Below are positions 62,575 to 63,992 of a stretch of DNA of 64,000 nt, piece after piece; position 1 is the stretch's first letter; each line of letters opens with the position of its first letter. The position numbers and the translations under genes are program-made. Origin of the DNA: a virus. Location: positions 9,513 through 73,512 of IMG/VR virus record IMGVR_UViG_3300035156_000198; one strand, 5' to 3'. The notes under the pieces are model-generated. The model was not told the DNA's origin. It made no database searches and saw only the letters and a list, made by a program, of their open reading frames with translations.

Positions 62575-63366
62575 GTGCGGACCGTGGCCCGTCCGTACAC
62601 CATCGCTGTCCCGTCGAGCAACCGCGCCACCACGTTCCGCGACAAGACCCTGGCCGTACTCATCGCCGGCGGTGTCGACCCCGCCCGCGTCACCGTGTGG
62701 GTGCCCGACCACGACCAGGCCGAGCACTACGACAAGGTGCTCGGCGGCACCGTGCACATCAGGGCCGGCCACGGCCGCGGCGTGCGCCAAGCCCGCAACG
62801 CGATTGCCACCGGCTACCCCACCGGCACCGACCTGGTGTGCCTCGATGACGACATCGCCGGCTTCTACCAGTGCATTGATCGCGAGCAACCCATCGTCCC
62901 GATGACCGACCTCCACGGCTTCATAACCCGCGCAATCGACACCGCCGACGGACACCTGTGGTGCGTCTACCCCGTGGCGAACGCCTACTTCATGCACCCG
63001 ACCCGGGTGCGACGCGGCGGCCTGTGGTACGCCGAGGGCGCCGTCATGGGATGGCGCGTCACCCGCGACTACGACCGCGAGCTGGTCACCCTGGACGACA
63101 AAGAGGACTTCGAGCGGTCATGCCGGTTCTACCTCACCGACGGCGAGGTCGTGCGCTTCGACAGCATCACGTTCAAGAGCCGGTTCTACAAGGAACCCGG
63201 CGGGATGCAGGACTACCGCACCGCCGAGTCGGTCAAGGTCGGCGCGCTGCGCCTGGCCGCGATGTACCCCGACCTGGCCACCGCCTACCGGGCCCGATCC
63301 GGCTGGTGGGAAGTCAGGTTGCGCGACCGCCGCCGCACCCGCCGCCCAGCTCGGGCCACGACATGA
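62575..63366 (+). CDS. GT-A fold glycosyltransferase (TET-associated, TAGT/GREB1-like)
   Basis: IAVPSSNRA, RQARNAI, LVCLDDDI (DxD), DKEDFERS, VVRFD, EPGGMQ. The true start may be the GTG at 62584. Confidence 0.8.
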   Translation: MRTVARPYTIAVPSSNRATTFRDKTLAVLIAGGVDPARVTVWVPDHDQAEHYDKVLGGTVHIRAGHGRGVRQARNAIATGYPTGTDLVCLDDDIAGFYQCIDREQPIVPMTDLHGFITRAIDTADGHLWCVYPVANAYFMHPTRVRRGGLWYAEGAVMGWRVTRDYDRELVTLDDKEDFERSCRFYLTDGEVVRFDSITFKSRFYKEPGGMQDYRTAESVKVGALRLAAMYPDLATAYRARSGWWEVRLRDRRRTRRPARATT

Positions 63367-63992
63367 CCCTGACCGGGCCCATCCTCGCCGTCGGTGCACA
63401 CCCCGACGACGTGGAACTAGGGTGCGCCGCCACCCTCGCCGCCCACCCCGGGTCCACCATCATCACCGCCACCCTCGGCGGCGCACGCGGCACCATCGAC
63501 ACCCGCCGCACCGAAGCCACCGCCGCCGCCGCCGACCTCGGCGCGAGCTGGGCCTGCCTCGGGTTCGATGACCTCGCCGTGCCCGCCGGCCACGAGCTGT
63601 CCCGCGCCGTCGAGCTGCTGGCCTTCCAAGCCCTACCCGCCGTCGTGCTCACCCACTGGCCCGACGACACCCACCCCGACCACCGAGCCGTCGCCCTCGC
63701 CGTCGCCGCCGCATGCCGGCCCGGCGCCGTCACACCCCACGGGTTGCAGCTGGCCTACTTCGAGGGCATCAGCAGCCGCCGGTTCACCCCCGACTGGTAC
63801 GTCACCACCACCACCGCCGACCTCGCCACCGCCACCATCGCCCTAGGCCGCTACCGCTCCCAGCTCGACGGGCCCGTCGACATCGGCGGCTACCTAGCCC
63901 GAGCCGCCTGGCGCGGCAGCCAAGTCCGCACCCCCGCCGCCGACGCCTACGCCATCGGCCGACTCATCACCACCAGCCACGGCACACCGTGA
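63363..63992 (+). CDS. PIG-L/LmbE family de-N-acetylase
   Basis: AVGAHPDDVELG, RRTEA..AAADLG, VLTHWPDDTHPDH, YRSQ; ATGA-coupled to the glycosyltransferase. Confidence 0.9.
   Translation: MTLTGPILAVGAHPDDVELGCAATLAAHPGSTIITATLGGARGTIDTRRTEATAAAADLGASWACLGFDDLAVPAGHELSRAVELLAFQALPAVVLTHWPDDTHPDHRAVALAVAAACRPGAVTPHGLQLAYFEGISSRRFTPDWYVTTTTADLATATIALGRYRSQLDGPVDIGGYLARAAWRGSQVRTPAADAYAIGRLITTSHGTP

Follow-up and report, generated by a model that had tools for sequence, protein, structure and literature searches.

The window analysed here is a 64,000-nucleotide stretch of viral DNA, corresponding to positions 9513-73512 of the IMG/VR record IMGVR_UViG_3300035156_000198 (G000; 74,174 bp, 72% GC). 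It contains a modification operon in which the gene for a glycosyltransferase (GT) of the TAGT (TET-associated glycosyltransferase) family is coupled to that for a zinc de-N-acetylase of the PIG-L/LmbE family, downstream of genes for a ParB-like protein and a TET/JBP-type dioxygenase. At least eight divergent lineages of actinophages have the ParB-TET-GT-PIG-L genes in collinear order, and comparison of these loci argues for a strong functional link between GT and PIG-L. We see about an even chance that the operon is the tailoring end of a post-replicative thymine hypermodification pathway, in which oxidation, addition of an N-acetyl-sugar, and deacetylation would give an amino-sugar base.

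Cassettes with this gene order were found in the Arthrobacter phages Altadena and Klevey, the Mycobacterium phages Acadian and Serendipitous (L040), the IMG/VR contigs L014, L019, and L027, the Logan contig L049, and the JGI contig L050. The carrier phages have different backbones, and therefore the cassette appears to move as a unit. Among the carriers, the PIG-L proteins are about 30-48% identical and retain all the catalytic residues. In a collection of 50,697 phage records, the GT is present in 22, of which 18 are actinophages (12 Mycobacterium and 6 Arthrobacter). Searches with the PIG-L proteins of Acadian and Altadena returned the same 18 actinophage records, with PIG-L always abutting the GT, as well as a small number of unrelated phages of Vibrio, Escherichia, and Acinetobacter. 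The actinophage orthologues were found only with these two queries; they were missed by tblastn with the window PIG-L (E≤1e-5). No record of the collection contains an actinophage PIG-L without this GT. In the window, the GT stop and the PIG-L start overlap at bases 63363-63366 (ATGA), a coupling already reported in an earlier note on this DNA. A four-base overlap alone is commonplace, and it is the strict adjacency in every actinophage having either gene that, at the sequence level, places the GT-PIG-L linkage beyond chance. The functional link is likewise considered strong because the cassette is collinear in all these lineages and the actinophage PIG-L occurs only beside this GT.

The window PIG-L matches PF02585 over the full-length profile with 66.6 bits for a cut-off of 28.2. 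Its AHPDD (H13, D15, D16) and HPDH (H104, D106, H107) motifs make up the complete zinc/catalytic set, as the earlier note had read from the translation, and align with those of TT1542, BcZBP, and BshB, which were found as sequence matches in the PDB. All six residues are invariant in eight cassette orthologues of only ~30% identity, and the zinc/catalytic residues are nearly invariant among 51 homologues. The AlphaFold2 (AF2) model of the protein has a predicted local distance difference test (pLDDT) value of 93.6. It superimposes on BcZBP, TT1542, and BshB with template modeling (TM) scores of 0.80-0.82, on chitobiose deacetylases with 0.75, and on MshB with 0.65-0.69. The significant Foldseek matches are without exception of the LmbE fold (42 of 42), and the structures of BshB, MshB, and Orf2*/Dbv21 are among them. 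The protein stays far under the NCBIfam equivalog cut-offs for BshB1 (68.1 vs 182.5), BshB2 (26.6 vs 195), and Mca (19 vs 277), and does not match the MshB equivalog at all. From its sequence and its model, the window PIG-L is thus predicted to be a bona fide LmbE-family hydrolase, and these low scores argue that it is not a thiol-pathway enzyme.

The same scores bear on the idea that PIG-L is a host-takeover enzyme, which would act on host small molecules such as mycothiol precursors and conjugates or cell-wall intermediates and would hitch-hike beside the DNA-modification genes. All the cultured carriers infect Actinobacteria, which use mycothiol, and the sequences nearest to the window PIG-L are cellular actinobacterial PIG-Ls in sugar/GT operons, two observations in favor of such a role. 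However, besides the distance from the MshB, Mca, and BshB equivalogs, the actinophage PIG-L is never found alone, and the collinear order with its start/stop overlaps recurs in unrelated phage backbones. We consider a host-takeover function very unlikely. In the free PIG-L tree, the window protein lies on a long branch and its position is not resolved. The trees do not reject a single origin for the TET-linked PIG-Ls: when they are constrained to one clade, the maximum-likelihood (ML) tree is 13 log-likelihood units (lnL) better than the free quick search (p-AU 0.84). Since the free tree leaves the window protein unplaced, we do not claim an independent recruitment of PIG-L. The nearest cellular relatives, from Geodermatophilaceae-like sequences (L059:5001-6530), are PIG-L paralogues in tandem, next to genes of the GT4/epimerase, ATP-grasp, and HAD types. 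Uncharacterised actinobacterial sugar operons of this kind are a possible source of the phage PIG-L gene.

The GT aligns with the Pfam family TAGT over the entire profile (positions 1-205 of 205) with 40.6 bits for a cut-off of 27.5 (3.4e-10), and with its PHROG family at 1.9e-59. A sequence search of the PDB gave no significant match for this protein, and a fold search was therefore needed. Its AF2 model, with a pLDDT of 95.8, has GT-A enzymes as top Foldseek matches (POMGnT1, ppGalNAc-T2, WrtF, TarS, and RmlT), with TM-scores of about 0.5-0.58. The DxD motif, D91-D92-D93, is invariant in 58 homologues. Together with the Pfam and PHROG matches of the operon proteins, the fold models of GT and PIG-L bear out the identities that the earlier note had assigned to the TET/JBP, GT-A glycosyltransferase, and PIG-L genes.

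The TET gene lies 540 bases upstream of the GT in the same operon, and a survey of GT relatives shows how far this association extends. Among the best 80 of 428 IMG/VR contigs encoding GT relatives, TET is found within 6 kb in 34, ParB in 7, and PIG-L in 1. The co-occurrence survey of the three genes that the earlier note had proposed is thereby in hand: the 18 actinophage records with the GT are the same as those with PIG-L, and PIG-L is present in a single one of these 80 best loci. Starting from the PIG-L profile instead, 4 of the 44 IMG/VR loci found contain the TET-GT genes. The dependence between GT and PIG-L is one-way, because the actinophage PIG-L always has this GT and most GT loci do not have PIG-L. 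In the GT tree, the GTs linked to PIG-L are all located in a part with high GC and ParB association, which is separated with 95% support in the Shimodaira-Hasegawa-like approximate likelihood-ratio test (SH-aLRT) from a 56-member clade without PIG-L, consisting largely of giant-virus and other contigs. The PIG-L-free ParB-TET-GT-terminase loci L070, L122, and L076 group in this high-GC part as well. From these sequence comparisons, PIG-L appears to be an optional tailoring step on a widespread TET-TAGT core.

One could imagine that only TET and ParB act on DNA and that GT and PIG-L modify RNA, virion proteins, or some other target. Some GTs of actinophages are indeed known to glycosylate proteins of the virion. 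However, this GT belongs to a TET-associated family, whose members adjoin TET in phages and giant viruses alike in the survey described above, and other TAGT-family members act on hydroxymethyl-pyrimidine DNA. A target other than DNA is, in our view, scarcely credible.

The dioxygenase scores 31.7 bits with the Tet_JBP profile PF12851, for a cut-off of 34.9, and the identical protein on contig L060 is listed with PF12851. Its iron triad, H179-x-D181 and H229, and the 2-oxoglutarate-binding R243 are invariant in seven orthologues. The protein has a conserved C-terminal extension of ~34 residues after C257, and the ParB-like gene is located 557 bases upstream. An extension of this kind, C-terminal to the last conserved Cys, has been reported only for ParB-dependent phage thymine dioxygenases (PMC13229309), and ParB homologues activate their cognate phage T-dioxygenases (O'Toole et al. 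2026, PMC13229309). For ParB-linked phage TET/JBP enzymes, the conversion of T to 5-hydroxymethyluracil (5hmU) after replication, with sequence preferences, has been shown experimentally, and ParB-dependent T-dioxygenases are associated with hypermodification genes, among them those for GTs and P-loop kinases (PMC13229309). The genomic context suggests that the window TET belongs to clade C1 of the 5mYOX enzymes.

The genome of the window's phage is complete and is circular or circularly permuted, because an independent 5.2-kb metagenomic contig (L061, 1-5186) bridges the end of the record to its start, running from the last 1,388 bases straight into the first 3,803, where the two ends overlap by 5 bases. 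The record is classed as "linear, 86% complete" despite this bridge, and the modification operon is at the right end of the assembly. No cytosine C5-methyltransferase (PF00145) is present in this complete genome, nor in the complete genomes of the cassette carriers Altadena, Acadian, and Klevey. The lack of this enzyme and the ParB linkage of the dioxygenase make thymine the most likely substrate, to judge from the sequences, and 5hmU the most likely product. The earlier note had left the hydroxymethyl base as either 5hmU or 5-hydroxymethylcytosine (5hmC); its first option is the one retained, and 5hmC was rejected as the main substrate given the four methyltransferase-free genomes.

Several database labels of the TET orthologues differ from this assignment. 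In the B5 mycobacteriophages, the TET (Acadian gp2, L002:813-1691) is labelled "queuine tRNA-ribosyltransferase", as is PHROG 6059, and that of PRodriguez is labelled "dpdA-like tRNA-guanine transglycosylase". The HxD...H...R residues and the Tet_JBP matches indicate that these labels are mis-annotations.

A further gene, missed in the earlier note because it runs off the end of the window, follows PIG-L. It encodes a P-loop kinase (G000 73501-74058; L003:2106-2663), whose GTG start overlaps the PIG-L stop (GTGA at 63989). The TET-GT-PIG-L trio described in that note is therefore present as stated, and incomplete at both ends, with the ParB gene upstream and the coupled kinase downstream. The kinase matches PF18751 (Ploopntkinase3) with 67.6 bits for a cut-off of 27 (1.3e-18), and its Walker A motif GVPGAGKT has invariant G8, G11, G13, and K14; a homologue search returned six homologues. 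The same kinase gene also follows PIG-L in the Mycobacterium B5 phages, in Serendipitous (L040), and in L027. Among the cassette loci compared, it is absent after PIG-L in the Arthrobacter phages, L014, L019, and L050. In the B5 mycobacteriophages, the kinase carries the misleading labels "adenylate kinase" or "terminase small subunit". In other thymidine-hypermodification pathways, 5hmU DNA kinases carry out a phosphorylation. By analogy, the target of the window kinase could be the sugar or a fraction of the 5hmU.

The presence of this kinase raises the question of the order of the steps. PIG-L might act before the transfer or on another intermediate, such as a nucleotide-sugar, an N-acylated sugar, or, together with the kinase, a phospho-sugar; the final base would still be an amino-sugar or sugar-phosphate adduct. 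The translational coupling of the GT, PIG-L, and kinase genes would fit such a scheme, as would the relationship of the kinase to the P-loop clan of the zeta toxins, which phosphorylate UDP-N-acetylglucosamine (UDP-GlcNAc); the Acadian orthologue passes the Zeta_toxin cut-off with 24.6 bits for 22.3. However, characterised PIG-L enzymes are established to take GlcNAc glycosides after the GT step and not UDP-sugars, and the cassettes without the kinase listed above keep both GT and PIG-L. We regard a different order of steps as distinctly unlikely.

The pathway that we favor, with deacetylation following sugar transfer onto DNA, would proceed as follows. The ParB-like protein would activate the TET/JBP enzyme, which would oxidize selected thymines in double-stranded phage DNA to 5hmU, as expected from the ParB-dependent subclass. 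The TAGT enzyme would then place an N-acetylhexosamine (HexNAc) on the hydroxymethyl oxygen. The simplest donor would be UDP-GlcNAc of the host, given that the phage has no sugar-nucleotide enzymes of its own; an epimerase and an NDP-sugar pyrophosphorylase (NTP-transferase) were looked for in the genome of the window's phage and none was found. PIG-L would strip the N-acetyl group from the DNA-bound sugar, as suggested by the chemistry of its family and the obligate gene linkage, and the product would be a hexosaminyl-oxymethyl-uracil whose free amine is partly protonated. In the three lineages with the coupled kinase, a further step would probably be added, which, speculatively, may be a phosphorylation of the sugar or of part of the 5hmU. 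The likely benefit would be shielding of the phage DNA from host nucleases, charge neutralisation for packaging, or both.

The division of labor is a familiar one. In the mycothiol, bacillithiol, glycosylphosphatidylinositol (GPI)-anchor, aminoglycoside, and glycopeptide pathways, GlcNAc is first added by a GT that draws on the abundant UDP-GlcNAc, and the amine is then exposed by a zinc hydrolase paired with this GT. The family logic of glycosyl transfer followed by de-N-acetylation invoked in the earlier note agrees with this established knowledge (MshA/MshB, BshA/BshB, PIG-A/PIG-L, and the aminoglycoside and teicoplanin systems). The logic of the pathway therefore appears sound. The sequences establish the identities of the genes, their intact active sites, their coupling, and a linkage that is both conserved and exclusive, whereas we infer each of the chemical steps. 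For the more specific proposal that 5-(hexosaminyl-oxymethyl)uracil, made by de-N-acetylation on the polymer, takes the place of a sequence-defined share of the thymines in the carriers, our confidence falls a little short of even; the kinase-bearing lineages may further phosphorylate this base to a zwitterionic sugar-phosphate base.

Several points weigh against the amino-sugar proposal. We know of no PIG-L/LmbE enzyme that acts on DNA or on a nucleobase glycoside within a polymer. Neither the sequence nor the fold matches of the GT model fix the sugar donor; a UDP-HexNAc donor is suggested only by way of the PIG-L linkage. The only characterised TAGT member, the T6-type beta-glucosyl-HMC alpha-glucosyltransferase, uses UDP-glucose as donor and a sugar as acceptor. 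The LmbE fold also holds a non-deacetylase, the GalB hydratase, which is among the fold matches. The window PIG-L is closer to cellular actinobacterial PIG-Ls (38-41% identity) than to other phage PIG-Ls (~30%). PIG-L is rare among the GT relatives surveyed, and L070, L122, and L076, which are close high-GC relatives with a ParB-TET-GT-terminase order, have no PIG-L; deacetylation would therefore be dispensable for the core system. In the record of L014, a C5-methyltransferase gene lies ~5 kb away from the cassette. Finally, the product of the kinase could alter the final chemistry.

Some of these points are those expected if the modified base were instead a base-J-like glucosyl- or hexosyl-5hmU. 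The GT would then use UDP-glucose or another non-acetylated donor, and PIG-L would be another deacylase, a hydrolase or hydratase, or a non-catalytic protein. The donor of the characterised TAGT member, the lack of PIG-L in most TET-TAGT loci, and the place of GalB in the LmbE fold all favor this possibility. It is harder to reconcile with the zinc/catalytic residues of the deacetylase, all of which are invariant across orthologues of ~30% identity, and with the nearest structures being bona fide GlcNAc-glycoside deacetylases. It would also leave the strict GT-PIG-L adjacency without explanation. We consider a base of this kind unlikely and retain the amino-sugar base as our working proposal. 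Overall, the observation made in the earlier note is confirmed, and its interpretation is partly supported.

The modification operon comprises nine tightly packed genes on the same strand, as delineated by the gene calls on contig L060, which is 99.98% identical, and by our own family scans (Table 1). The start of the ParB-like gene is taken from the gene call on this near-identical contig. Four small open reading frames (ORFs) of 129, 58, 73, and 88 amino acids (aa) are interleaved with ParB, TET, and GT, and a family was assigned only to the 129-aa one; no homologue was found for the 58-aa ORF. Small ORFs at the same positions in Altadena, Klevey, and L049 have no detected sequence similarity to those of the window.

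Table 1. Genes of the modification operon, in window coordinates
Feature	Position	Strand	Evidence
ParB-like protein, 249 aa, putative dioxygenase activator	59860..60609	+	ParB_N 1.8e-8 (above cut-off); phrog_723 1.5e-39
129-aa ORF, phrog_1540 (function unknown)	60611..61000	+	phrog_1540 1.5e-23; L060 gene call; no Pfam match
58-aa ORF	60993..61169	+	L060 gene call; stop overlaps TET start, ATGA at 61166-61169
TET/JBP-type Fe(II)/2-oxoglutarate (2OG) 5-methylpyrimidine dioxygenase, 290 aa	61166..62038	+	Tet_JBP 1.1e-7; phrog_6059 1.9e-61
73-aa ORF	62046..62267	+	high GC at third codon positions (GC3); L060 gene call; no Pfam/PHROG family match
88-aa ORF	62299..62565	+	L060 gene call; no Pfam/PHROG family match
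TAGT glycosyltransferase, predicted GT-A fold, 263 aa	62575 (GTG)..63366 (TGA)	+	PF20691; phrog_25200
PIG-L/LmbE-family zinc de-N-acetylase (predicted), 209 aa	63363 (ATG)..63992 (TGA)	+	PF02585 3.9e-18
P-loop kinase start (185 aa, PF18751 Ploopntkinase3)	63989..64000	+	runs 546 bases past the window end to G000 74058

The large terminase subunit (TerL) of the window's phage is at most 52% identical to that of the Streptomyces phage Chymera and 47% identical to those of Mycobacterium cluster-E-type phages, and a megablast search of a 3-kb region against the 50,697 phage records gave no match. By sequence, the window's phage thus appears to be an actinophage of an unsequenced kind, without a close sequenced relative. 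In most related contigs (L122, L019, L070, L076, L027, L050, and L002), TerL is directly downstream of the ParB-TET-GT(-PIG-L)(-kinase) cassette; in the window's phage, it is ~13 kb from the cassette, across the genome junction. The position of the cassette before TerL in the relatives points to a possible connection of modification with packaging. Elsewhere in the window (45676-47687), a YqaJ-like exonuclease and a RecT annealase form a phage recombination module.

Two other loci show related gene combinations. A second TAGT-like GT and a cytosine C5-methyltransferase are found within a few kb of the L014 cassette (L014:591-1550 and G010:2750-3232), and some relatives may act on 5-methylcytosine (5mC) or add a second sugar. 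In the Vibrio phage vB_VpS_PG28 (L055:4998-10663), an unrelated PIG-L labelled BshB1 is encoded together with two WbqC-like proteins, a methyltransferase, a GT4, and a Noc/ParB-like protein; the locus may serve another type of sugar-based DNA modification in which a deacetylase likewise takes part.

The hypermodified DNA of phages is a rapidly expanding source of new nucleic-acid chemistry, of enzyme tools, for example for 5hmC mapping, and of counter-defence mechanisms. If the proposal is true, the product would be the first nucleobase in DNA to bear an amino sugar, and PIG-L would be the first PIG-L/LmbE enzyme with a nucleic-acid substrate. A de-N-acetylase acting on DNA would add a new reaction type to post-replicative DNA tailoring and equip a sugar-modified base with a primary amine that can be addressed chemically. 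The prediction is unusually testable, as cultured SEA-PHAGES isolates that carry the cassette and infect M. smegmatis mc2 155 and Arthrobacter globiformis are freely available. The analysis also corrects misleading database labels of the TET and the kinase.

The gene arrangement itself has already been seen. In 18 GenBank phage records, the labels given by SEA-PHAGES annotators read "glycosyltransferase" and "glucosaminyl deacetylase", without chemistry, and one phage genome report lists the GT and deacetylase genes without comment. Our literature search found no paper with a deacetylase step in TET/GT phage DNA glycosylation, a partial exception being an uncharacterised CE4-type "polysaccharide deacetylase" in the thymidine-oligosaccharide cluster of Carin-5. 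No paper proposing or measuring an amino-sugar base was found either, in a search that did not include the TAGT-defining study of Iyer et al. 2013, which may note the association. Within the literature searched, the statement in the earlier note that no characterised phage base is made by a TET, GT-A, and PIG-L route holds. The resulting amino-sugar base, if real, is chemically new.

Among known systems, the ParB-dependent phage T-dioxygenase pathways (5mYOX clade C1, PMC13229309) resemble the window operon in the adjacent ParB-like gene, the C-terminal extension of the TET/JBP enzyme, the lack of a neighboring C5-methyltransferase, the linked GT and P-loop kinase tailoring genes, and the post-replicative action on T. 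They differ in that a PIG-L/LmbE deacetylase is not mentioned by O'Toole et al. 2026 (0 matches in a search of the paper text), where the tailoring products of ParB-dependent clusters were not determined (PMC13229309). The phage 5hmC glycosylation clusters (Burke et al. 2021; Pyle et al. 2023/2024) also combine TET-type oxidation with a subsequent GT step. They offer a precedent for HexNAc on a DNA base in the form of 5-HexNAc-mC and di-HexNAc-mC (Pyle et al.). In contrast to the window operon, they start from 5mC made by a co-encoded C5-methyltransferase, have no described deacetylase, and leave their sugars N-acetylated.

The cationic phage thymidines, namely alpha-putrescinylthymine of PhiW-14, 5-NeOmdU of ViI, and 5-NedU of M6 (Lee et al.), are likewise derived from 5hmU, associated with P-loop kinases, and endowed with a free amine that resists restriction. 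They differ by the pre-replicative incorporation of 5hmdU and a kinase/pyrophosphate displacement chemistry, with no glycosylation-deacetylation. Base J of kinetoplastids (JBP1/2 and JGT) shares with the proposed pathway the TET/JBP conversion of T to 5hmU and the ensuing O-glycosylation by a GT-A-like enzyme. However, it is a eukaryotic modification without a ParB partner, and its sugar is glucose, so that neither an amino sugar nor a deacetylase is involved. The pairs of GT and PIG-L/LmbE enzymes (MshA/MshB, BshA/BshB, PIG-A/PIG-L, BtrM/BtrD, and teicoplanin tGtfA/Orf2*) match the window's GT and PIG-L in gene pairing, motifs, and fold; their known acceptors are small molecules or lipids, whereas here the acceptor would be a nucleobase in the DNA polymer.

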